34,433 bases of DNA from an uncultured Clostridia bacterium (GCA_964556835.1 CAZKXV010000001.1:1-34433); one strand, 5' to 3'. Counted from the first letter of the stretch, positions 17,179 to 29,836 are shown. A program made the numbers and translations. The notes: generated from the sequence alone by a model not told the origin.

Positions 17179-17208
17179 AGCACACCGCAGTACTGCGGTG
17201 TGCTTTTC
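17179..17208 (+). terminator. Rho-independent terminator after purA
   Basis: Perfect palindrome AGCACACCGCAGT/ACTGCGGTGTGCT followed by TTTT. Confidence 0.8.
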
Positions 17209-17222
17209 TCTTGCCCTATTAG

Positions 17223-17251
17223 TTGTATATGTTTATTCTATGTGCTATAAT
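17223..17251 (+). promoter_or_regulatory. Candidate extended -10 promoter of the DegT-family gene
   Basis: TTGTAT - 17 nt - TATAAT with TGc immediately upstream of the -10. It lies between the purA terminator and the RBS AAGGAG at 17262. Confidence 0.5.
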
Positions 17252-17275
17252 TTGCCTATTCAAGGAGATAGCAAA

Positions 17276-18466
17276 ATGAGCATTAAGTTTTCAAGAGCAG
17301 ACATTACAGAAGAAGAGATTAAAGAGGTTGTTGATACCCTGCATTCAGGATATATTACTACCGGAACAAAAACTAAGGATTTCGAAAAACAGCTTGCAAC
17401 TTTTTGTAATGTGAAGAAAGTCGCCTGTTTGAATTCAGCTACTGCTGGGCTTGAACTAATATTAAGGGTACTCGGAATAGGTGCAGGCGATGAGGTCATT
17501 ACTACTGCTTATACTTATACTGCAACCGCAAGTGTGATAAGTCATGTGGGGGCAAGAATTATATTAGTAGACACACTTAAGGGTAGCTATGAGATAGATA
17601 GTATGGGGATTGAGAATGCAATAACTTCTAGAACTAAGGTAATTATTGCGGTGGATATTGCGGGCAAGATATGCGATTATAATAAGATTTATCAAGCTGT
17701 GGAAGCAAAGGTAGACTTATTTGTGCCTAGTAATGACATTCAAGAGCGTATGGGAAGAATTGCAGTTATTGCAGATGGCGCCCATAGTTTTGGAGCCCAA
17801 AAGAATGGAATACTTAGTGGCAGCTTTGCTGATTTTACTGTATTTAGTTTTCATGCAGGCAAGAATTTGACCGTTGCTGAGGGTGGTGCAATAGCTCTTA
17901 ATGAATGTGATTTCTATGATACTGAAGAAATGTACAAGCAATTTATGATTTTTGGACTACATGGTCAGACAAAGGACAGTTATAGCAAAGAAAAATTAGG
18001 TGCGTGGGAATATGATATTGTGACACTTGGTTATAAATGTAATATGACAGATATCTCTGCAAGTATAGGCAAGATTCAACTAGCTCGATATCCTAAAATT
18101 CTAGAAAGAAGAAAAGAAATAATATCTATATATAATGACGAACTCGGTGACTTAATTGAAGTAATAGACCTATGTAATAATAAGGAATTATCAAGTGGTA
18201 CATTATACATGACAAGAATACCGAATAAGACGGAGCTTGAGCGTAATAATATAATTCTAGCGCTTGCTGAGGAAGGCATTCCTACAAATGTTCATTTCAA
18301 ACCGTTACCTATGTTCACAGCTTATAAGAGGCTAGGGTTCGATATCAAAGATTTCCCTAATGCTTATAACCAATATGCAAATGAAATAACATTGCCCTTG
18401 CATACGCTTCTAACTAATGAAGATGTGTATAAGATTATTAAAGCATTTAAGATATGTATATCTTGA
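17276..18466 (+). CDS. DegT/DnrJ/EryC1/StrS-family PLP-dependent aminotransferase
   Basis: The family PLP-lysine motif is FSFHAGKNLTVAEGG, with LNSATAGLEL upstream. The start is set at the ATG preceded by AAGGAG, because the 17198 start in the ORF track overlaps the purA terminator and the promoter. Confidence 0.85.
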   Translation: MSIKFSRADITEEEIKEVVDTLHSGYITTGTKTKDFEKQLATFCNVKKVACLNSATAGLELILRVLGIGAGDEVITTAYTYTATASVISHVGARIILVDTLKGSYEIDSMGIENAITSRTKVIIAVDIAGKICDYNKIYQAVEAKVDLFVPSNDIQERMGRIAVIADGAHSFGAQKNGILSGSFADFTVFSFHAGKNLTVAEGGAIALNECDFYDTEEMYKQFMIFGLHGQTKDSYSKEKLGAWEYDIVTLGYKCNMTDISASIGKIQLARYPKILERRKEIISIYNDELGDLIEVIDLCNNKELSSGTLYMTRIPNKTELERNNIILALAEEGIPTNVHFKPLPMFTAYKRLGFDIKDFPNAYNQYANEITLPLHTLLTNEDVYKIIKAFKICIS

Positions 18467-18527: not shown

Positions 18528-19553
18528 ATGATTAATATTGGAATTATTGGAATGGGCAGAATTGGGCGTGTACATATGGAAAGTATATGTACTAGTGTCC
18601 CTGAAGCGAAAGTAGTAGCTATTGCAGATCCTTACTTAACTAGCGAAACCGAAACCCTTGCCCTAGAGAAATACAAGGTACTTAATGCCTACAAAGATTA
18701 CAAAAAAATCCTATCTGATGATAGTATTGATGCGGTGGTGATTTGTTCATCGACTGATACACATTCAGCTATCTCAATTGAAGCGCTTAAAGCGGGTAAA
18801 CACGTTATGTGTGAAAAGCCTATTGATACTGACTACAAAAGAATAATAAAAGTGGTCGAGGCTGTGAAAGAGAACAGTCATTTGAAATTTCAAGTTGGGT
18901 TTAATAGAAGATTTGACCATAATTTTATGGCACTTAAGGAACAAAGTAAGAATCTAGGTGCTATTCACATTATTAAGATTACATCACGTGACCCTGCTCC
19001 ACCACCAATTGAGTATATCAAAGTATCGGGGGGATTATTCAATGATATGATGATTCATGACTTAGATATGGTGCGTTTTTTGTCCTCATCTGAAGTGGAA
19101 GAAGTTCACGTATATGGCGGAGCCTTAGTAGATAAACGCATAGGCGAGGCAGGCGATATTGATACTGCTATCGTTAGTATGAAATTATCAAGTGGCGCTT
19201 TCGCTGTTATTGATAATTCAAGACAAGCTGTGTATGGATATGACCAGAGAGCTGAAGTATTCTGTGCAAATGGTATGGTATGCTCAGAAAACGATGCCCC
19301 AAGTACAGTGAAAGTAGTTACATCTAGTGGTGTAAATAGTGAAAAACCACTACATTTTTTCCTTGATAGATATATGCAAGCATATGCAAAAGAGCTAAAA
19401 TGTTTCGTAGAAGCAATAATAAATGATACGCCGACTATTTGTAATGAGACTGATGGTCTAAAACCATTCTTGATAGCTAAAGCGTGTGCAAAATCATTAT
19501 TAGAAAGTAGACCTGTGACAATAGCAGAAATTGAAGAAGAGTTAAGCAGATAA
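18528..19553 (+). CDS. iolG: Inositol 2-dehydrogenase (Gfo/Idh/MocA family)
   Basis: Rossmann motif IGIIGMGRIGRVH, then CEKP and VGFNRRFDHNF motifs of the IolG/IdhA type. It is adjacent to iolE/D/B. Confidence 0.75.
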   Translation: MINIGIIGMGRIGRVHMESICTSVPEAKVVAIADPYLTSETETLALEKYKVLNAYKDYKKILSDDSIDAVVICSSTDTHSAISIEALKAGKHVMCEKPIDTDYKRIIKVVEAVKENSHLKFQVGFNRRFDHNFMALKEQSKNLGAIHIIKITSRDPAPPPIEYIKVSGGLFNDMMIHDLDMVRFLSSSEVEEVHVYGGALVDKRIGEAGDIDTAIVSMKLSSGAFAVIDNSRQAVYGYDQRAEVFCANGMVCSENDAPSTVKVVTSSGVNSEKPLHFFLDRYMQAYAKELKCFVEAIINDTPTICNETDGLKPFLIAKACAKSLLESRPVTIAEIEEELSR

Positions 19554-19623: not shown

Positions 19624-20514
19624 TTAATAATTAAGTGATTTTGTTATGTAATCATATGCATATTTTGCATAAGCTAAGGGGTTCGCTTTTTTCGGGTCTT
19701 GTTCAGCCTCAACTACTAACCAGCCTGTATAATCATTTTCTTGTAAGACTTTGAATATTGGGTTAAAATCAATATTGCCATCGCTAGGCACAGTAAATAC
19801 TCCTTCGATAACTGAGTCTAGAAAGCTAAGTTCATTGACTAATGCACCAGCAAGTATAAAATTACGAGTATCTTTCAAGTGAATGTGTTTGATACGCTTA
19901 ATATATTTATTAAGCAAGAATAAAGGGTCAATATCATCATAAGAACAATGACCAGTATCGAATAATAAATTGACATATTGAGGATTAGTAGCTTCCATAA
20001 ATCTATCAATTTCAGCTATTGTCTGAATGCCGGTGCACATATGATGATGATAACTCATTACCATTCCTTTGTCGTATGCTATCTTACCTAATTTGTTAGC
20101 ACCTGCAATAACACTCTCCCATTGGGATTCATTAAAAGCAGACTCTCTGACAGTTACAGGAATATTCTTCTGTTGGGTTGAAGTACCTTGTTCGCTAATC
20201 CCTATATTAGTGCAACCTATAGAAAGTAAGAAATCACAGAACTCTATAAATAATTTCTCAGTATATTCGTAAGGCTTAGTTGATAGGTATGTACTGAACC
20301 AAGAATTGCAAATCTTCAAATTTCTTAATGATAATTCATTATTTAGTTCGGTAGCATCTTTTGGGAAACAACCTCCTAATTCAGTACCGCTAAAACCTGC
20401 TTGTGCTACTTCTTCTAGAATTTGTTTGTAACATGTACCTTTTCCAAGTTCGGGTAGGTCATCATTTACCCAGCCAATAGGCGCTATAGCTAATTTAATA
20501 TTGCTTTTGGTCAT
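19624..20514 (-). CDS. iolE: Inosose dehydratase
   Basis: LAIAPIGWVNDD N-terminus, YHHHMCTGIQT, and VVEAEQDPKKANPL motifs match B. subtilis IolE closely. The RBS is AAGGAG. Confidence 0.85.
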   Translation of the reverse strand: MTKSNIKLAIAPIGWVNDDLPELGKGTCYKQILEEVAQAGFSGTELGGCFPKDATELNNELSLRNLKICNSWFSTYLSTKPYEYTEKLFIEFCDFLLSIGCTNIGISEQGTSTQQKNIPVTVRESAFNESQWESVIAGANKLGKIAYDKGMVMSYHHHMCTGIQTIAEIDRFMEATNPQYVNLLFDTGHCSYDDIDPLFLLNKYIKRIKHIHLKDTRNFILAGALVNELSFLDSVIEGVFTVPSDGNIDFNPIFKVLQENDYTGWLVVEAEQDPKKANPLAYAKYAYDYITKSLNY

Positions 20515-20516
20515 CT

Positions 20517-22445
20517 TTAGTATCTCCTTGATTTATTCAATTCCTTTTTCATCGCTTTTGTTGCGATTGTAATACTTTCTTTTTCTGCAATTTCAGCATT
20601 TCCAACTCTCCAGAATGATTCATATCCATCAGTCATAGTCTTAGGTAATACTTTTATATCAATTAAGGTACTGACAGTTTGTTTCTTTGAGTCCTCTATT
20701 GCTTGAATTAATTGTTGTTCATTTTTAACCGTATAAGTAATACAACCATAGGCCTTTGCATTCATTGCATAGTCAACTTTAACTAATTCGCCATTAAGTC
20801 CACTGGCTGTTCTTTTTCTTGTTTCTGTGAAGAAACTACCCATGCCGTGTCCCATTTGTAGATTGTTAATGCACCCGAATGAAATATTATCAAAGACAAG
20901 TACATTTATTTTCCTGTTTTCTTGTATGGAAGTCAAAAGCTCTGAATTAAGCATCATATATGAGCCATCGCCAACAAAAGCATAAACTTCTTTGGTAGGT
21001 TCAGCGAGTTTCGCTCCCAGTGCGCCTGCAATCTCATATCCCATACAGCTATAACCGTATTCCATATGATATGTATTAGGGCTTTTAGGTCGCCATACTC
21101 TTTGCATATCGCCAGGGAGTGAGCCGCTTGCTCCAACAACTATTGCGTCTGTTGCGAGTAAATTATTTATGATGCTAAGAACTCTGGTTTGGGTTAGGGT
21201 AGAGCCATTAATTGCGATATATTCGTCTATTTTATCATCAAGGTGTCCACTTATTTCTGGAATGAAATTATCTTTATACTTAATATTATCTAGTCTATCC
21301 AATTCCTTTATCCAAGCTTTTTTAGCGTTTAAGTATTCGTTAGTATAAGCCGACCTATATGAGATTTCTGCAAGCTCAGAGGCGATAGCTTGTAGTGCGA
21401 CTTTCGCATCAGCACAAACTCTTACAGCGTCTAGTTTATAGCAGTCGAATGCAGCTATATTTATATTGAGATAATCCACATTAGGATTCTGAAAAAGCCA
21501 CTTAGAAGAAGTGGTAAAATCGGTATATCTAGTTCCTACTCCAATAACTAAGTCGGTCTCTTTTGCGATAATATTTGCACTAAGGTCGCCAGTTGTTCCA
21601 ATCCCACCAAGGTTATATGGGTTATCCCAAACTATTGCGGATTTGCCTGCTTGTGTTTCTGCAAAAGGTATATTAAAAGCTTTTGCAAATTCTAGCAATT
21701 CTGCACCAGCCTCGCTATATTTGACACCACCACCACATATTAGTAGGGGTTTCTTTTTTGACTTAATTAATGCTATGGCTTCTTTAATCATATATGGTGT
21801 AGCGGGCGTTCTTTCTATGCGATGCACTCGTTTATCGAAAAAAGAAACTGGATAATCGTAAGCCTCGCCTTGTACATCTTGTGGTAGACAGATTGTTACC
21901 GCACCTGTTTCAGCAGGGCTAGTGAGTACCCGCATTGCGTTAATCATGGAGGACATAAGTTGTTCGGGTCTGGTTATTCTGTCCCAGAACTTGCTTACTG
22001 CCTTAAATGCATCATTTGTGGATACTGTTAAATCGTTAAACTGTTCAAGCTGTTGTAGAACAGGGTCAGGCTGTCTATCTGCGTATACATCTCCCGGTAG
22101 TAACAATAATGGCAATCTATTAGCCGATGCAGTTGCGGCTGCAGTTAACATATTAGCTGCGCCTGGTCCTACTGAAGAGGTGCAAGCATATATTCTCTTT
22201 CTTAGGCTTTGTTTGCCGAATGCGGCTGCAGCATGCGCCATTCCCTGTTCATTCTTCGCTTGATGAACGACTAATCTTCCGCCTCGCTCCTCTAATGCTT
22301 GTCCTAATCCTAATACATTTCCGTGTCCAAATATTGTAAATACTCCCTCAACAAAAGGTTCTTCTCTATCATCGAATGCTACATATTGGTTCTTAAGGAA
22401 TTCTATAAGTGCTTGAGACATGGTTAATCTAATAGTTCTGCTCAT
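20517..22445 (-). CDS. iolD: 3D-(3,5/4)-trihydroxycyclohexane-1,2-dione hydrolase (ThDP-dependent)
   Basis: [20 protein letters not shown]-terminus and ThDP motif [12 protein letters not shown]. The start is set at the ATG at 22445, which makes an ATGA overlap with the iolB stop and has GGGGG upstream. The ORF track gives 22460. Confidence 0.9.
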
Positions 22446-23236
22446 TTTTCTGACCCCCATATTTTCGCATTAGAGTCATTGACCCAAGTATGCTCTTCTA
22501 CAAATGTAGGAGTAATGTATCTGTCATTTTCTAAGTGTCTGATTACCCATACGTATAACATTGCGTAACCGGGTGCTGTTGTCTGGGGATGCGTTGCTCC
22601 TGCGGGTATTAATACGGCATCATTTTCTCTTACTTTCACCACATCTTCGCCTAATTCGCAGAAACCATATCCATTGACAGGATTGAATTTGTAGAAATAT
22701 ATTTCTGGTTGTGGATGATGATGAGGCGGATAACTAGACCATTTACCGGGGTAATCTATCACTTCGCCTAATACTAAGTTTGCATAAGGGGCATTGCTAT
22801 TATCGAATATTGTACGCACATTCCTTGTGCTTGTATCGCCCATTGTACCTTTGCCACGCATTTCAGATGCAACATCTTCTGATGAGTAAAATACAGGTTC
22901 AAATTCGTTATTATTTGTAGTTGCTTGATATACTAACTCCGCTTGTTTGCTAGTGCATATTATCTCGACTTTAACTCCTTTGGGGATATGCAGGCATACA
23001 CAAGATACATTAAATGGATTAGAACGCTCCGCTTTAATACTTTTTCCATTGTAATTGAAAATGACACTGCCTTTCATAAGTAAATATGCACGCTCAAGAG
23101 GTTCTTCATTTACTATTTTATCACCACTTTCGAGAAGAAATAGTCCAAAGTCCATTAATGCACTTTTATAGTTGCCGTTCATTTCAGTAATGCTGTTGTA
23201 TCCTCTGATATAGGGTGAATCTGATCTTATTCTCAT
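22442..23236 (-). CDS. iolB: 5-deoxy-glucuronate isomerase
   Basis: Cupin-type protein with the [16 protein letters not shown] motif of IolB. It is the first gene of the iolB-D-E operon. Confidence 0.85.
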
Positions 23237-23372: not shown

Positions 23373-23402
23373 TTGCCATTATTTGCGTAAATGGTGTATA
23401 AT
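23373..23402 (+). promoter_or_regulatory. Candidate promoter of the lacI-gap-pgk-larA-like operon
   Basis: TTGCCA - 18 nt - TATAAT. The spacer contains the near-palindrome ATTTGCGTAAAT (23381-23392) with a central CG. Confidence 0.4.
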
Positions 23403-23439
23403 GAATAAATTATGATGATTATCTTATGTGGAGCAGGAG

Positions 23440-24453
23440 ATGACTAAATACGATGTAGTAACAATTGTTGATATAGCTGAACGTATAGGTGTATCATGTG
23501 CTACTGTTTCACGTGCATTAAATGGCAAAAAGGGTGTTGGAGAGAGAAAACGCAAAATGATAATTGAATTGGCGAACGATTTGTGTTATGAACCAAATGC
23601 TATTGCGCAAGGCTTAAGAGAGAAAGCATTTAAGACTATTGGTTTAGTAATTCCCGATATTGCAAATCCATTATATCCTGCTATAGCTCGTGGTGTTGAG
23701 GACAAGGCTTTAGAATATGGGTATAATGTATTTTTATGTAATAGTAACTGGAGTGTTGAGATTGAGCAGACGCAGATCAAATCATTAAAACAGCTTAGAG
23801 TTGCGGGGTTAATACTTAATCCTACTTCTGATATTTTTGAAGATAATTATAAAGACACTAATATACCTAGTGCATATATTAGTTCAAGGCTAGATGAAAG
23901 GTATAAGCCTTATGTGGGAGTTGATAATGTTCAAGCAGGCTTCATTGCGACTGAATACTTAATTAAATGTGGTTATACTAGAATAGGATTTATCGGTGGA
24001 ACTGCAAAATCTTATGATAGCGAGACTAGATACGAGGGTTATCTCAAAGCGCTTAAACACTATGGCTTAAATTGCGATGAAAGTTTATGCGAATTCGGTT
24101 GGTATAGCTTGAGAAGTGGTAAGAATATCATGACTAAGCTACTTGAACTTGACAATCCATGCGATGCGGTTTTCTGTGCTAATGATACTATAGCTATAGG
24201 GGCGCTGAGCGCTGCTAATAGTATGAATATAAGTGTACCTGATGAGTTAGGTATTATGGGTTTTGATAATATAAGTATGGCAGAAATTCCACAACTTGAG
24301 CTTAGCACAATTTCTATTCCTAAGTATGAAATGGGAGTAGCCGCAGTGGAATTGCTAATGCAAGTTATACAAGGAACAGAGGGCGAAGAGCATAAAGTTC
24401 TTGAACCTGAATTAATAATAAGAAAAACAACAAAAAAATTGTTCGGAGGATAA
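23440..24453 (+). CDS. LacI-family transcriptional regulator
   Basis: N-terminal HTH VTIVDIAERIGVSCATVSRALNG followed by a periplasmic-binding-protein-like sugar-binding core. The ATG at 23440 has GGAG 6 nt upstream. The ORF track starts at the GTG at 23428. Confidence 0.9.
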   Translation: MTKYDVVTIVDIAERIGVSCATVSRALNGKKGVGERKRKMIIELANDLCYEPNAIAQGLREKAFKTIGLVIPDIANPLYPAIARGVEDKALEYGYNVFLCNSNWSVEIEQTQIKSLKQLRVAGLILNPTSDIFEDNYKDTNIPSAYISSRLDERYKPYVGVDNVQAGFIATEYLIKCGYTRIGFIGGTAKSYDSETRYEGYLKALKHYGLNCDESLCEFGWYSLRSGKNIMTKLLELDNPCDAVFCANDTIAIGALSAANSMNISVPDELGIMGFDNISMAEIPQLELSTISIPKYEMGVAAVELLMQVIQGTEGEEHKVLEPELIIRKTTKKLFGG

Positions 24454-24454
24454 G

Positions 24455-25480
24455 ATGAATAAAATTAAAGTAGCAGTAGTAGGATATGGCGTTATAGGTC
24501 AAAGATTAGCAGATGGAGTAAGTTATCAAGCAGATATGGAGTTAGTGGGTATTGTTGATGCCGCTCCAACTCTCACAATGATGACTTTACTAGAAAAGGG
24601 TATGCCATATAAAGTATATGCGGCTTTTCCTGAAGCAAAAGAACAACTTGAAAATGCAGGTATTCCAGTAAGCGGACTAATGACAGACATATTACAACAG
24701 GTAGATGTTGTACTTGATGCAACTTCTGCGGGTATTGGTGCGAAGAACAAAGTGCTTTATGAGAAATATAATGTCAAAGCTATCTTCCAAGGCGGAGAAA
24801 GTAATGATGTGGCAGATGTATTCTTCCATGGATATGCTAATTATGAGAAAGCCTTAGGCAAAAGCTTCTTGAAACTTACTAGTTGCAATACTACAGGTCT
24901 AATTCGTGCGGTTGATTGCCTTGACCGTATGGTCGGCATAGAAAAGATAGCTATTACAATCGTAAGAAGAGTAGCTGACCCTGGTGATTATCATAGAGGC
25001 TTGACCAATGCCCTACAAGTAGATAAAGCTCCTAGTCATCAAGCTCTTGACTTGATGACCATTATGCCACATATCGAGGCTACTGGTATTCTTGTTCATA
25101 CACCTATTACACACGGACATTTTATTACTGTAGTTGCTACTCCGAAAAAAGATATTTCTGTAGAAGAAGCTATTAACGCTTTTAGAGCTCATCCAAGAAT
25201 TAAGATGGTTACAATCGACCAAGGCTTCTTAGGTAATGCTTCTGTATTCAAATATGCTAGAGACTGTGGCAAACTGCGTGGTGATGTATATGAGATATAT
25301 GTATGGGAAGATTTAATTGTGAAATCTGGCAAAGATATTATGTTTGGTATACATATTCCACAAGAATCCGTAACTATTCCAGAGACAATAGATGGTATCA
25401 GAGCACTTATGAATATGCAAATTGATAGAATTGAAGCTACTAATGAAACCAATAAATACTTAGGTATGGAGCAGAAATAA
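24455..25480 (+). CDS. Class II (archaeal-type) glyceraldehyde-3-phosphate dehydrogenase homolog
   Basis: The protein is collinear with archaeal GAPDH: VVGYGVIGQR, GIGAKN..KAIFQGGE, catalytic TSCNTTGL (Cys144, nt 24884-24886), VRRVADP, and QESVTIPE. The bacterial GapA signature SCTTN is absent. The RBS is GGAGGA. The gene starts 1 nt after the lacI stop. Confidence 0.85.
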   Translation: MNKIKVAVVGYGVIGQRLADGVSYQADMELVGIVDAAPTLTMMTLLEKGMPYKVYAAFPEAKEQLENAGIPVSGLMTDILQQVDVVLDATSAGIGAKNKVLYEKYNVKAIFQGGESNDVADVFFHGYANYEKALGKSFLKLTSCNTTGLIRAVDCLDRMVGIEKIAITIVRRVADPGDYHRGLTNALQVDKAPSHQALDLMTIMPHIEATGILVHTPITHGHFITVVATPKKDISVEEAINAFRAHPRIKMVTIDQGFLGNASVFKYARDCGKLRGDVYEIYVWEDLIVKSGKDIMFGIHIPQESVTIPETIDGIRALMNMQIDRIEATNETNKYLGMEQK

Positions 25481-25481
25481 T

Positions 25482-26720
25482 ATGAAAATGAACAGGTTAT
25501 CCGCCTATGACTATTCTAATAAGACCGTACTAGTCAGAATAGATATTAATTCGCCAATAGACAGTATTACAAAGAAAATTGTAAGTAGGAACAGATTAAC
25601 AAAATCTATTCCCACTTTGAAATATTTGATTGACAGTGGTGCTAAAATCGCAATTATAGCTCATCAAGGGGACACTTTAGATTACTATAACTTAATCTCT
25701 ATGCAAGAGCATAGCGAGATACTAAGCGAGTTATTAGGACAAAGCGTAAACTACATAGATGATGTAGCAGGCGATTGTGCAATCGAAGCAGTTAAGAACT
25801 TGAAGAGTGGGGAAATAATATTGCTAGGAAATTTGAGGTATCTTGCCGAAGAAATTTCCACATTTGAAGAGGTAGTGAAACTTACCCCAAATGAAATGTT
25901 AGATTGCTACCTTGTAAGAAGATTGGCGCCATTATTCCAATATTATATAAATGATGCTTTCAGTGCAGCGCATAGAAATGCACCATCAATGGTCGCTTTT
26001 CAAGAGCTATTGCCGAGTGTAGCGGGCGAGTTGTTTTATACAGAAATAGAGAACCTTGACCGTATTATGAGTGCACCTAATAAACCATCTGTGTTCGTTC
26101 TTGGCGGTGCTAAGATTTCGGATGCTTTCGGAATGATGGAACAAGTTCTTATGAATGGTACAGCGGATACTATTCTAACCGCTGGTGTGACAGGGCTTGT
26201 CTTTATGATAGCAGATGGTATAGATGTAGGAAAGATGACAAACAAGTTCTTGGAAGATAGAGGATTAACTAGTTTCATCGATGATGCTAGAAAATATCTT
26301 AAAACCTATCCAAATAAAATTAAGTATCCAATAGATATATGTTATGCCGAAGCGGGGATACGTTACGAAGTTACTTGTGATAAGTTACCACTTGAAAAGA
26401 GTTTTCTTGATATAGGTTCATTAACTATAGCAAGTTACCAGAAAATATTATTGGAGGCGAAAACCATATTTGTAAATGGTCCAGCAGGGGTATACGAGCA
26501 AGAAATATTTGCGATAGGAACTTGTGATATTTGGAAAGCTATAGCCGCTAGTAATGGGTACAGCGTTATAGGTGGCGGTGATACCGTTAGTGCAGCATCG
26601 AAATTTATAGACCTTAAAGATATTGGTTATGTATGTACAGCAGGGGGTGCAATGGTTCGTTACCTGAGTGGAAAGACGCTTCCCCTTATAAAGGCGATGC
26701 AGAAAGCTTACAAAGAATAA
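25482..26720 (+). CDS. pgk: Phosphoglycerate kinase homolog, archaeal-like
   Basis: PGK motifs VLVRIDINSPID, IIAHQG, LLGNLRY..EE, NDAFSAAHR, VLGGAKISD, and IGGGDTVSA are present in order. Length is 412 aa. The gene starts 1 nt after the GAPDH homolog. Confidence 0.85.
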   Translation: MKMNRLSAYDYSNKTVLVRIDINSPIDSITKKIVSRNRLTKSIPTLKYLIDSGAKIAIIAHQGDTLDYYNLISMQEHSEILSELLGQSVNYIDDVAGDCAIEAVKNLKSGEIILLGNLRYLAEEISTFEEVVKLTPNEMLDCYLVRRLAPLFQYYINDAFSAAHRNAPSMVAFQELLPSVAGELFYTEIENLDRIMSAPNKPSVFVLGGAKISDAFGMMEQVLMNGTADTILTAGVTGLVFMIADGIDVGKMTNKFLEDRGLTSFIDDARKYLKTYPNKIKYPIDICYAEAGIRYEVTCDKLPLEKSFLDIGSLTIASYQKILLEAKTIFVNGPAGVYEQEIFAIGTCDIWKAIAASNGYSVIGGGDTVSAASKFIDLKDIGYVCTAGGAMVRYLSGKTLPLIKAMQKAYKE

Positions 26721-26750
26721 TTATAGAAATAAACATAAGGAATATTACTA

Positions 26751-28004
26751 ATGATTACTCATAATCTTAAGTTTAATAAAGAAATCCTAAGTTTCGATAT
26801 TGAAGAAGACAACTTAATTAGCTGTCTTATTCCTAATGCTATAGATTATGAATTTAAGAGTACAGAGGCGGTTAGAAATGCTATACTTAATCCTATAGGA
26901 ACAGCTCGCTTAAAAGACATTGTAAGTAGAGGTGAAACTGTTGCAATAGTTACTAGTGATATTACTAGACCTATGCCATCTAAGACCGTTCTTCCATTTG
27001 TGATAGAAGAATTACTTGAGGGCGGTATCAAAGAGTCAGATATTTTCATTGTGCTTGCACTAGGAAGTCATAGAAAGCACACAGCCGAAGAAATGAAATA
27101 TTTAGTAGGTAATGATATTTATAATAGTGAAATAAGAGTAATGGACAGCGATATGGAAGATTGTGTTTGCTTAGGTAAATGTAAGAATGGAACACCAGTA
27201 GATATTTATACGCCAGTAGCTGAAGCGGACAGAGTTATTTGCTTGGGTAATGTCGAATTTCATTATTTTGCAGGATACAGCGGAGGTGCGAAAGCACTTA
27301 TGCCAGGGGTATCAAGTTGGGAAGCAATACAAGCTAACCATTCTAATATGGTCAAGGCGGGTGCAGAAGCGGGTAATTTGATTTCTAATCCAGTTCGCCA
27401 AGATATTGAAGAAACAGCAGAATTTATTAAGATAGATTTTATTGTTAATGTTGTACTAGATGATAAGAAAGAGATTGTAGGGGCAGTAAGTGGACATTAT
27501 TCTAAAGCACATAGAGTAGCTTGCAAAATGTTAGATAGACTATACTCTGTAGATATTGAAAAGAGAGCTGATATTGTGGTCGTTTCGGCAGGCGGGTATC
27601 CTAAGGATATCAATATATATCAAGCACAAAAAGCGTTAGATAACGCAAAAGGCGCTGTTAGAGAAAGCGGGATTATAATTCTAGTAGCAAGTTGTAAAGA
27701 GGGGTTTGGAGAGCATACTTTCGAAGAGTGGATGACTACAATGACACCTGATAAAATGATAGATACAATCAAAAAAGATTTTAAGCTTGGGGGACATAAG
27801 GCAGCAGCTATCGCTATGATACTCAAGAAAAATAAGATTTTTCTTGTTAGTGATTTGGATAATGCGATAGTTCGTAGTATTGGTTTTGAGCCATTTGCGA
27901 CTGTTGATAATGCTCTTTATCAAGCATATAAGGAGATAGGGGAGAAGGCACAACTATACATTATTCCTTATGGAGGCTCAATTCTACCTAAACTAAAGAT
28001 ATGA
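26751..28004 (+). CDS. LarA-family nickel-pincer-nucleotide-dependent 2-hydroxyacid racemase/epimerase homolog (DUF2088 type)
   Basis: SDITRP, LGSHR (His107), FHYFAGYSGGAK (His171, Lys181 at nt 27291-27293), and ANH (His197). The spacing is the same as His108/His174/Lys184/His200 of L. plantarum LarA. Confidence 0.85.
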   Translation: MITHNLKFNKEILSFDIEEDNLISCLIPNAIDYEFKSTEAVRNAILNPIGTARLKDIVSRGETVAIVTSDITRPMPSKTVLPFVIEELLEGGIKESDIFIVLALGSHRKHTAEEMKYLVGNDIYNSEIRVMDSDMEDCVCLGKCKNGTPVDIYTPVAEADRVICLGNVEFHYFAGYSGGAKALMPGVSSWEAIQANHSNMVKAGAEAGNLISNPVRQDIEETAEFIKIDFIVNVVLDDKKEIVGAVSGHYSKAHRVACKMLDRLYSVDIEKRADIVVVSAGGYPKDINIYQAQKALDNAKGAVRESGIIILVASCKEGFGEHTFEEWMTTMTPDKMIDTIKKDFKLGGHKAAAIAMILKKNKIFLVSDLDNAIVRSIGFEPFATVDNALYQAYKEIGEKAQLYIIPYGGSILPKLKI

Positions 28005-29836
28005 AAAAAAAGAGTTATATTATATTTTTCTTGATTATACTAGCTTTAATTGCTAGTCTTTCTGCATGTAATTTCAAAGATAATCAAACAATTACAATTA
28101 GTTTCCATAATAATGGAGGAACTGGAGTTATGTCCAATATGGAAGTAGATATTAATTCAGATGTGACCATTATTGAGAATACATTTACTAGAGAGGGATA
28201 TGATTTCAGCGGTTGGGCATTTTCGGCTGAGGGAGAAGCATTAGCTTATAGTGGCGAAGAATACCGTATAGGTGAATTGGATATTGAACTATACGCTGTA
28301 TGGACACTTAGCCCTAATATAATAATCTTTCATTCGAATAATCAAATTGATATTACTACAAACATTGATATATTTTATGGTGAGATAATAGCTCTGCCAT
28401 TTAATACTTTTGAAAATGAAGGATATATATTTGGAGGTTGGGGATTAACTGCGGACTCAGAAGTTATTTTTGATGATGGTGCAAATTATACTTTTAATAT
28501 CAGACAAGATATTAACTTATACGCAATCTGGTATGAGTTGAAATATACAGTATCGTATAATACAACGAATGGATCGGGCGAAATGTCAGACTACCTAGCT
28601 TATGAAGGAGAGTCATTGACCTTAACTTTATGTAACTATTCCTATAATCATCGTGACTTCTGCGGTTGGGCAACGGTTACGGGAGGCGAGGTAATACACC
28701 TAGATGGTGCAGAAATTGAGATTAATGGTGATTTGAATTTATATGCAGTCTGGGCGATAGTTGATTATACTATCACTTTGGATTATAATGAACTTGCTAC
28801 TAATACTACTCTAGAAGTGCAAGCATTAGGTCAAGTTGCACTACCTCTTGCAGAGGAAATTACTGGTATGAGTTTTGATGGTTGGTATTTCGATAGTCAA
28901 TATACGCAATCCATAAACTTCCCATATGCAATAATCAGCGACCATACTATATATGCGAAGTATTCTCCATTATATGTAGTCAACTTCTATGATTATGATG
29001 ATACTCTACTTAAGACTTCCTATGTGCAAACTGGTGCTAATGCTGAAGCACCAAGCGAACCTACAAGAGAGGGATATCAATTCGACTGCTGGAATAATAG
29101 CTATATAAGCATTACTTCATCAATAGATATTTATGCTCAGTATAATGCTCTAGAATATACGGTCACATTTAACTCAAACGGTGGAACTGGAACAATGCAA
29201 GATTTTTCCGTTTTATACGAAACTTCAGCAAATTTACCTGCAAACCTTTTTGTTAGAACAAATTATAGATTTCTAGGATGGTCGCAGGAAGCACTGGGCA
29301 GTGCTATATATGAGGATAATGGTATCTTTACTATGAATTTATTAGGAGTCACACTGTATGCTATATGGGAATATGGGATAGAATACTTATATTGCGAACT
29401 TTCAAATGGTTATACTATTACTAATGTACTACAGGGCACTAAAATGGTGGAGATTCCTAATACATATGATGATGGCTTAAATGGTACAGCAGAGGTATTA
29501 ATTATAGGCGAGGAAGCCTTTATGAATAATGATGTACAATCAGTTATCTTAGGTGAAAACATAACCAAAGTTGAGATAAATGCTTTTAAGGGTTCAACTG
29601 TAAGTGATATAACTTTGAATGAAGAGTTAACAGAGATAGGAAATTATTGTTTCAAAGATTGTATAAGTCTAACTTCAATAATTATTCCAAGTGGTGTGGA
29701 TATAGTGGGTATTGGCATCTTCTCGGGGACAAATACTGATGTATATTGTATACGTGGTATAGAAGGAGTGGGCTGGGATACTTCTTGGGACAATGAAATG
29801 GAAGGTATCGTTATATGGAATTATACGGAGGTCTAA
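28001..29836 (+). CDS. Surface lipoprotein with about 6 Listeria-Bacteroides-type (Flg_new) repeats and a C-terminal BspA-type leucine-rich repeat region
   Basis: Signal peptide with lipobox LSAC (Cys23). Repeating ~70-aa units of the form F..NGGTG.M......REGY.F.GW........LYA.W. The C-terminus has LRR units (I.I..NAF...T.L..I.IP..V..IG). The ATGA overlaps the upstream stop. Confidence 0.8.
   Translation: MKKKSYIIFFLIILALIASLSACNFKDNQTITISFHNNGGTGVMSNMEVDINSDVTIIENTFTREGYDFSGWAFSAEGEALAYSGEEYRIGELDIELYAVWTLSPNIIIFHSNNQIDITTNIDIFYGEIIALPFNTFENEGYIFGGWGLTADSEVIFDDGANYTFNIRQDINLYAIWYELKYTVSYNTTNGSGEMSDYLAYEGESLTLTLCNYSYNHRDFCGWATVTGGEVIHLDGAEIEINGDLNLYAVWAIVDYTITLDYNELATNTTLEVQALGQVALPLAEEITGMSFDGWYFDSQYTQSINFPYAIISDHTIYAKYSPLYVVNFYDYDDTLLKTSYVQTGANAEAPSEPTREGYQFDCWNNSYISITSSIDIYAQYNALEYTVTFNSNGGTGTMQDFSVLYETSANLPANLFVRTNYRFLGWSQEALGSAIYEDNGIFTMNLLGVTLYAIWEYGIEYLYCELSNGYTITNVLQGTKMVEIPNTYDDGLNGTAEVLIIGEEAFMNNDVQSVILGENITKVEINAFKGSTVSDITLNEELTEIGNYCFKDCISLTSIIIPSGVDIVGIGIFSGTNTDVYCIRGIEGVGWDTSWDNEMEGIVIWNYTEV

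Follow-up and report, generated by a model that had tools for sequence, protein, structure and literature searches.

Malate racemases form the largest group of LarA enzymes, and their physiological role is largely unexplained. A larA-like gene of an uncultured Clostridia bacterium, located in a window of 34,433 nucleotides (the whole stretch of DNA analyzed in this study), raises this question in a specific form: on which substrate would its product act in an operon with GAPDH- and PGK-like genes, and where would its nickel-pincer (NPN) cofactor come from if larB, larC and larE do not accompany it? The reading that we favor, with a probability of roughly 0.6, is that the gene encodes a malate racemase, that this enzyme inverts D-malate formed by the GAPDH- and PGK-like enzymes, and that its cofactor is not supplied via LarB, LarE and LarC. 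By itself, the gene is an ordinary representative of a known group of enzymes; what would be unusual is its role as a stereochemical adaptor in an undescribed module, as well as its cofactor supply.

The LarA homolog and its conserved residues

The gene is an uninterrupted open reading frame with an ATG start, and the opposite strand is full of stop codons. Its features are listed below; codons were assigned by alignment, with the residue numbers of Lactiplantibacillus plantarum LarA in parentheses.

26738-26743, plus strand: ribosome-binding site (AAGGAA), 7 nt upstream of the ATG
26751-28004, plus strand: predicted LarAH6/Mar2-type nickel-pincer malate racemase gene, 417 aa (profile matches, alignment and tree)
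26967-26969, plus strand: Arg73 codon (Arg75), inside SDITRP, NPN phosphate binding
27069-27071, plus strand: His107 codon (His108), catalytic acid/base
27261-27263, plus strand: His171 codon (His174), catalytic acid/base
27291-27293, plus strand: Lys181 codon (Lys184), NPN thioamide tether
27339-27341, plus strand: His197 codon (His200), nickel ligand
27795-27800, plus strand: His349-Lys350 codons (positions of Trp358/Thr359), malate-racemase specificity pair according to the rule in PMC11770544

The predicted protein has the two-domain architecture of the LarA superfamily (DUF2088), with Pfam matches to Lar_N (PF09861, 2.2e-65, residues 9-204) and LarA_C (PF21113, 7.5e-26, residues 271-411). 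In a HMMER alignment with the L. plantarum enzyme (PDB 6c1w), His107, His171, Lys181 and His197 were in register with His108, His174, Lys184 and His200, the last three being separated by 10 and 16 residues in both proteins, and Arg73, Gln291 and Lys294 were aligned with Arg75, Gln295 and Lys298. Thus, both catalytic histidines and all five NPN-binding residues are present. The original prediction had pointed to SDITRP (residues 69-74), to the three histidines and the lysine and to their spacing, and had read them as the residue set of an NPN-dependent racemase; the alignment confirmed each of these residues, and as far as the sequence can tell no catalytic or cofactor-binding residue is missing. 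The protein is a singleton that shares no more than 66% identity with its nearest relatives, and a better genome of its species does not exist. It shares with L. plantarum LarA the residue set for proton-coupled hydride transfer and the lysine tether for NPN, but the two proteins are only 34% identical, their specificity residues differ (Tyr-Phe...His-Lys instead of Phe-Phe...Trp-Thr), and neither maturation genes nor lar transporter genes were found with the gene studied here.

Substrate specificity

Among the NCBIfam models, the protein passed the cut-off of the nickel-dependent malate racemase of the LarAH6 family (NF052593, 540.7 bits, cut-off 500), and its scores for all other LarA-type models were below the corresponding cut-offs, including LarAH10 (393.8 bits, cut-off 540), LarAH5 (384.9, cut-off 462) and lactate racemase (NF033504, 350.9, cut-off 460). 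The best match in PDB was the malate racemase Mar2 (6d6z/7s91, E-value 1e-109, 45% identity). A recent survey has reported that malate racemases have His or Gln followed by Lys at the positions of Trp358 and Thr359 of LarA, and that this Lys pairs with the second carboxylate of the substrate (JBC 2024, PMC11770544). Here, the segment GGHKAA, containing His349-Lys350, was aligned to DQWTAQ of LarA and to LGAHKAA of Mar2. The complete set of specificity residues is Tyr172-Phe173...His349-Lys350, compared with Phe-Phe...Trp-(Glu/Gln/Thr) in lactate racemases. In a maximum likelihood tree of 58 sequences (quick IQ-TREE search), the protein was located within a 29-row clade together with Mar2 (SH-aLRT 98), and the lactate racemases formed a separate clade (99).

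Based on these sequence features, the protein is very probably a malate racemase. The original prediction had left its specificity open among the 2-hydroxyacids, adding that tight clustering with a group of known specificity would fully explain the protein. Such clustering, with the characterized Mar2, is what the tree revealed, and together with the model match and the His-Lys pair it means that the specificity should no longer be considered open. Most databases designate homologs of this protein as lactate racemases; we rejected this assignment because of the low NF033504 score and the different specificity residues.

Mar2 of Thermoanaerobacterium thermosaccharolyticum (6D6Z, 7S91; PMC7583248) is the closest characterized system. 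The two proteins have in common the fold family, the catalytic and NPN-binding residues, the His-Lys pair and the clade, and both groups are linked to malic enzyme. On the other hand, besides its moderate identity to Mar2, the protein studied here is encoded in an operon with LacI, GAPDH and PGK homologs beside iol genes, and larB, larC and larE were not found in the genome.

Operon structure and paralogous GAPDH and PGK

The genes surrounding the racemase gene were assigned as follows, the iol genes on the basis of profile matches.

18528-19553, plus strand: iolG-like gene
19624-20514, minus strand: iolE
20517-22460, minus strand: iolD
22442-23236, minus strand: iolB/KduI-like gene
23373-23402, plus strand: best sigma-70-like promoter match (11/12) upstream of the LacI gene, a consensus match only
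23428-24453, plus strand: LacI-family repressor (Pfam LacI and Peripla_BP_3), first gene of the operon
24455-25480, plus strand: type II (archaeal-type) GAPDH paralog, here designated GAPDH2, with the altered motif PSHQALD (NF003251, 393.9 bits)
25482-26720, plus strand: PGK paralog, here designated PGK2, with AHQGDT at the phosphate-clamp motif (Pfam PGK, 1e-103)
28001-29836, plus strand: surface lipoprotein-like gene with Listeria-Bacteroides repeats and BspA leucine-rich repeats

The racemase gene is the fourth cistron of this LacI-headed unit, and no terminator-like site was found on the plus strand between 23428 and 30000. The lipoprotein-like gene is probably the last cistron, since its ATG overlaps the stop codon of the racemase gene (ATGA). 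Upstream of the operon, iolE, iolD and the iolB/KduI-like gene are divergently oriented, and the iolG-like gene lies on the plus strand. A gene for a DegT/DnrJ/EryC1-family aminotransferase, which may represent an inosose/inosamine step, was observed directly upstream of the iolG-like dehydrogenase gene (17198-18466).

This iol cluster shares iolG-like, iolE, iolD and iolB/KduI-like genes with the classical myo-inositol pathway of the Bacillus subtilis type (IolG-IolE-IolD-IolB-IolC-IolJ-IolA), but lacks iolC, iolJ and iolA; instead, split transketolase, GAPDH2, PGK2, LarA and malic enzyme are found at related loci. Neither a transketolase gene nor a malic enzyme gene was detected in the window. 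Both are present elsewhere in the same genome, the split transketolase within a second inositol-like cluster on contig C13 and malic enzyme on contig C86. Besides the split transketolase, the cluster on C13 (L125:5463-10882) encodes an IolD-like ThDP enzyme, a GFO/IDH/MocA dehydrogenase and an RpiB/LacAB-like isomerase; genes for an IclR regulator and for an aldehyde dehydrogenase lie after it.

GAPDH2 and PGK2 might be taken for the housekeeping glycolytic enzymes. We rejected this possibility because a canonical PGK (528 bits, SHLGRP) is encoded on contig C10 and fragments of a type I GAPDH gene are located on contigs C197 and C216. The catalytic scaffolds of glycolytic GAPDH and PGK are kept (E-values of 4e-73 and 1.5e-90 with type II GAPDH, 2CZC/1CF2, and PGK, 2CUN), and the chemistry, from aldehyde to acyl phosphate and then to acid and ATP, is presumably the same. 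What distinguishes GAPDH2 and PGK2 is that they are additional to the housekeeping pair and that their phosphate-site motifs are changed and maintained in the changed form across phyla. PGK2 has AHQGDT in place of SHLGRP of the housekeeping PGK and HQGKP of Pyrococcus PGK, and 64/78 sequences of the PGK2 subfamily have this motif. GAPDH2 has PSHQALD in place of PSHHGPD of the archaeal structures; PSHQA[LV]D was found in 51/81 sequences of its subfamily, and for 23 the search pattern gave no PSH match.

Gene associations at related loci

By searching species-representative genomes, we identified more than 570 relatives of GAPDH2. The best 80 of them (69-79% identical), which belong to Clostridia, Spirochaetota, Gammaproteobacteria, Victivallales, Atribacterota and Planctomycetota, were analyzed, and gene associations were counted within 10 kb of GAPDH2 at these best 80 of >570 loci. 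PGK2 was present at 77/80 loci and a LarA homolog at 43/80, followed by malic enzyme (30/80), iolE and iolD (30/80 each), iolG (26/80), iolB (24/80) and a split transketolase (~22/80), which mostly lay directly after PGK2. None of larB, larC and larE was observed within the same distance (0/80).

The full set is arranged on one strand in Clostridium magnum: malic enzyme ... GAPDH2-PGK2-TktN-TktC-iolB-iolD-iolE-iolG-LarA. A closed genome of the same taxonomic order as the window organism (G031) contains GAPDH2-PGK2-malic enzyme-LarAH6; genes for an SDR, a lactonase and a sugar ABC transporter come after this block, and an iolB-like gene is divergently oriented. In another genome of this taxonomic order (G022; L037:7932-10397), LarAH6 is fused to NAD(P) malic enzyme in a protein of 821 aa (NF052593, 568 bits). 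The original prediction had stated that the GAPDH/PGK context of this gene differs from known examples, and this holds true: in Sci Rep 2020 Table S1 (PMC7583248), malic enzyme (15%) is the only neighbor given for LarAH group 6, and PGK is given for group 4 alone. The GAPDH2-PGK2 operon context is new for LarA.

Other arrangements were also observed. In a second context (~12 loci, including L045, L046, L048, L051, L053, L061 and L065), genes for a class III aminotransferase, a DctM-type TRAP transporter and a sigma-54 activator precede GAPDH2-PGK2 and replace the iol genes, with malic enzyme and LarA following where the locus is long enough. This suggests a second feeder of the same C4 aldehyde, perhaps from an omega-amino hydroxy acid. 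In Gammaproteobacteria (L067, L069, L094, L097, L102, L112, L117, L120 and L121), GAPDH2-PGK2 pairs that lack LarA, malic enzyme and iol genes adjoin two conserved membrane proteins of ~157 and ~313 aa.

A possible role in inositol-derived malate formation

We propose the following pathway. IolG, IolE, IolD and IolB would convert inositol to 2-deoxy-5-keto-gluconate, a ketose with the D-threo C3/C4 configuration that is needed in transketolase donors. Transketolase would then remove a C2 unit from this compound and release 3-hydroxy-4-oxobutanoate, an aldehyde similar to glyceraldehyde 3-phosphate but bearing a carboxylate where the latter has its phosphate. GAPDH2 may oxidize this aldehyde to an acyl phosphate, and PGK2 may transfer the phosphate to ADP, so that one ATP would be gained. 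Throughout these steps the hydroxyl-bearing carbon should keep its D configuration and, by textbook reasoning, the product should be D-malate. Because of this retained configuration, a racemase would have to invert D-malate to L-malate before it could be used by malic enzyme or central metabolism.

The pathway is built on several observations: LarA has the residues of its family, GAPDH2 and PGK2 are paralogs whose phosphate sites are altered, the genes co-occur at related loci, and LarAH6 is fused to malic enzyme in G022. We consider this role of the operon, with conversion of D-malate to L-malate after an ATP-yielding GAPDH2/PGK2 module, slightly more probable than not. It would give a malate racemase a concrete job, namely the inversion of D-malate from an ATP-yielding GAPDH/PGK-like module fed by inositol or by other feeders. 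No literature was found on a link between inositol, transketolase and malate racemase, or on a type II GAPDH associated with inositol.

It is also conceivable, but quite improbable, that the racemase acts on a 2-hydroxy-dicarboxylate other than malate that is formed by GAPDH2/PGK2, such as tartrate or 5-deoxyglucarate, the latter arising from direct oxidation of 5-deoxyglucuronate, the IolD product. Mar-type enzymes do epimerize tartrate promiscuously (PMC11770544), the NF052593 score exceeds the cut-off by only 40 bits, and in a window without transketolase the local genes do not determine which aldehyde GAPDH2 uses. Against such a substrate stand the His-Lys pair, which is invariant in all 50 homologs examined, and the genes that accompany the module elsewhere: malic enzyme, both as a neighbor at 30/80 of the best 80 of >570 loci and as a fusion partner of LarAH6 in G022, as well as the iolB-like isomerase and the split transketolase, whose co-occurrence with the module suits a ketose donor that is cleaved to a C4 aldehyde.

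Apparent absence of larB, larC and larE

The genome that contains the window (G000) has a size of 1.63 Mb in 259 contigs, all >2.5 kb, and is 86% complete. Profile HMM searches of this 86%-complete assembly found no LarC match, a best LarE score of 29 bits (cut-off 150) and a best LarB score of 41 bits (cut-off 175), which corresponded to PurE; tblastn searches with LarB, LarC and LarE of a relative found nothing either. The absence of these genes from the window, noted in the original prediction, thus extends to the available assembly, which contains genes for two NPN-type enzymes. Searches for the nickel transporters CbiM (PF01891) and NicO (PF03824) gave no match in G000 or in three relatives (G031, G022 and G007); this is uninformative, since both are missing from the larBCE-positive genome G014 as well.

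Similar absences were observed among relatives at several levels of relatedness. Ten genomes of the same taxonomic order as the window organism have a strong LarA homolog; three of them lack LarC, and in 3/3 LarB and LarE are absent too. These three are 98-99% complete (G031, 99%; G022, 99%; G007, 98%), and G031 is a closed genome that has the same operon as the window. Among 42 genomes with operon-linked LarA, taken from the best 80 of >570 loci, 19 lack LarC, and LarB and LarE are absent in 19/19; six LarC-positive controls have both. The absence of larBCE in these 19/42 genomes is all-or-none. Within the same class, 150 genomes that were at least 95% complete were scored, and 33 of them have LarA. 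Twenty of the 33 lack LarC (18 without any match and 2 with weak partial matches of ~100 residues); LarB was detected in 1/20 and LarE in 0/20, and three closed positive controls have both. Hence, none of the three genes is present in 19/33 LarA-bearing genomes of this set, and the set of genes is incomplete in 20/33. When only the class genomes (≥95% complete) above the malate-racemase cut-off were considered, 9/16 were without LarC. One operon carrier belongs to a spirochaete family of which 61 genomes were analyzed; LarC was found in 3/61, and 14/16 genomes with LarA lack it. When the larBCE-less state was mapped on the LarA tree (58 sequences, quick IQ-TREE search), at least 8-10 changes were needed, indicating that this state arose repeatedly.

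Some genomes of the same class showed intermediate patterns. G149 has LarB alone, without LarC or LarE. G169 and G230 contain only ORFs of ~200 aa that match ~100 positions of the LarC profile and could be either remnants or a short form of LarC.

Is the window organism a conventional, self-sufficient producer of malate racemase whose larB, larC and larE fall in the ~14% of the genome that is missing from the bin? With a completeness of 86% and 259 contigs, the assembly may have missed a larBCE cluster of 3 kb; lar genes are mostly clustered (as in G014 and G041), and the loss of a single contig would then eliminate all of them. The two LarA-family genes kept in G000 also fit this explanation, as do the cultured isolates found with the operon, since 7/7 of them carry larBCE (Sinanaerobacter, Alkalibacter, C. 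magnum, Bacilliculturomica, C. peptidivorans, Fonticella and Caloramator) and most larBCE-less genomes are metagenome bins. However, larB, larC and larE are all missing from the three nearly complete genomes of the same taxonomic order, one of which is closed and has the same operon, and more than half of the highly complete LarA-bearing class genomes (20/33) lack a complete set. A rough estimate, using a prior of ~60% for larBCE and a chance of 15-20% for missing the cluster, gives a posterior of ~0.2. We therefore regard a missed cluster as unlikely, and there is a good chance that the organism truly lacks larBCE.

Another explanation is that genomes without larBCE carry LarA as a relic in decay or as a protein that does not need the nickel cofactor. 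As this explanation would expect, such genomes lack the known genes for cofactor biosynthesis and, to our knowledge, no NPN uptake system has been described. The original prediction had likewise reasoned that a complete genome without larBCE would imply a non-functional or cofactor-independent protein. This reasoning was not borne out: closed G031 and many other high-quality genomes lack larBCE, and their LarA proteins keep the NPN-binding residues. The reading frames are intact, the operon position is conserved, and nine key residues (Arg73, His107, His171, Lys181, His197, Gln291, Lys294, His349 and Lys350) are invariant in 50/50 homologs, orphan or not, down to ~30% identity. Furthermore, dN/dS was 0.09-0.18 between pairs of orphan LarAs with unsaturated dS (0.3-1.0). 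Judging from these sequence comparisons, orphan LarAs are under purifying selection, and a relic or a cofactor-independent protein is very improbable.

Possible sources of the cofactor

If the favored reading is correct, a functional malate racemase would probably obtain NPN that was not made via LarB, LarE and LarC in its own cell, either from neighboring cells or by an unrecognized route. One tentative explanation, which we consider possible though somewhat less than an even chance, is that NPN or a late precursor is vitamin-like, so that functional racemases are kept and the cofactor is provided by community members or by such a route. The LarA genomes behind this idea are the 20/33 high-quality genomes of the class and the 14/16 genomes of the spirochaete family. 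We found no literature on scavenging of NPN or auxotrophy for it. The literature found treats larBCE without LarA and not the reverse; a 2014 Nat Commun paper on lar distribution may already have counted LarA-only genomes. The selection acting on larBCE-less LarA makes two possibilities testable, namely cross-feeding of an organometallic nickel cofactor and a second biosynthetic route. For specialists in the field, this aspect of cofactor supply matters more than the role in the pathway.

The second LarA homolog of the window genome is encoded on contig C52 (L039:5762-7012, minus strand). It is of the lactate-racemase type (NF033504, 444.7 bits, cut-off 460), falls in the lactate-racemase clade of the 58-sequence tree (quick IQ-TREE search), and adjoins two ORFs without annotation (303 and 143 aa) and a gene for a P-type ATPase.
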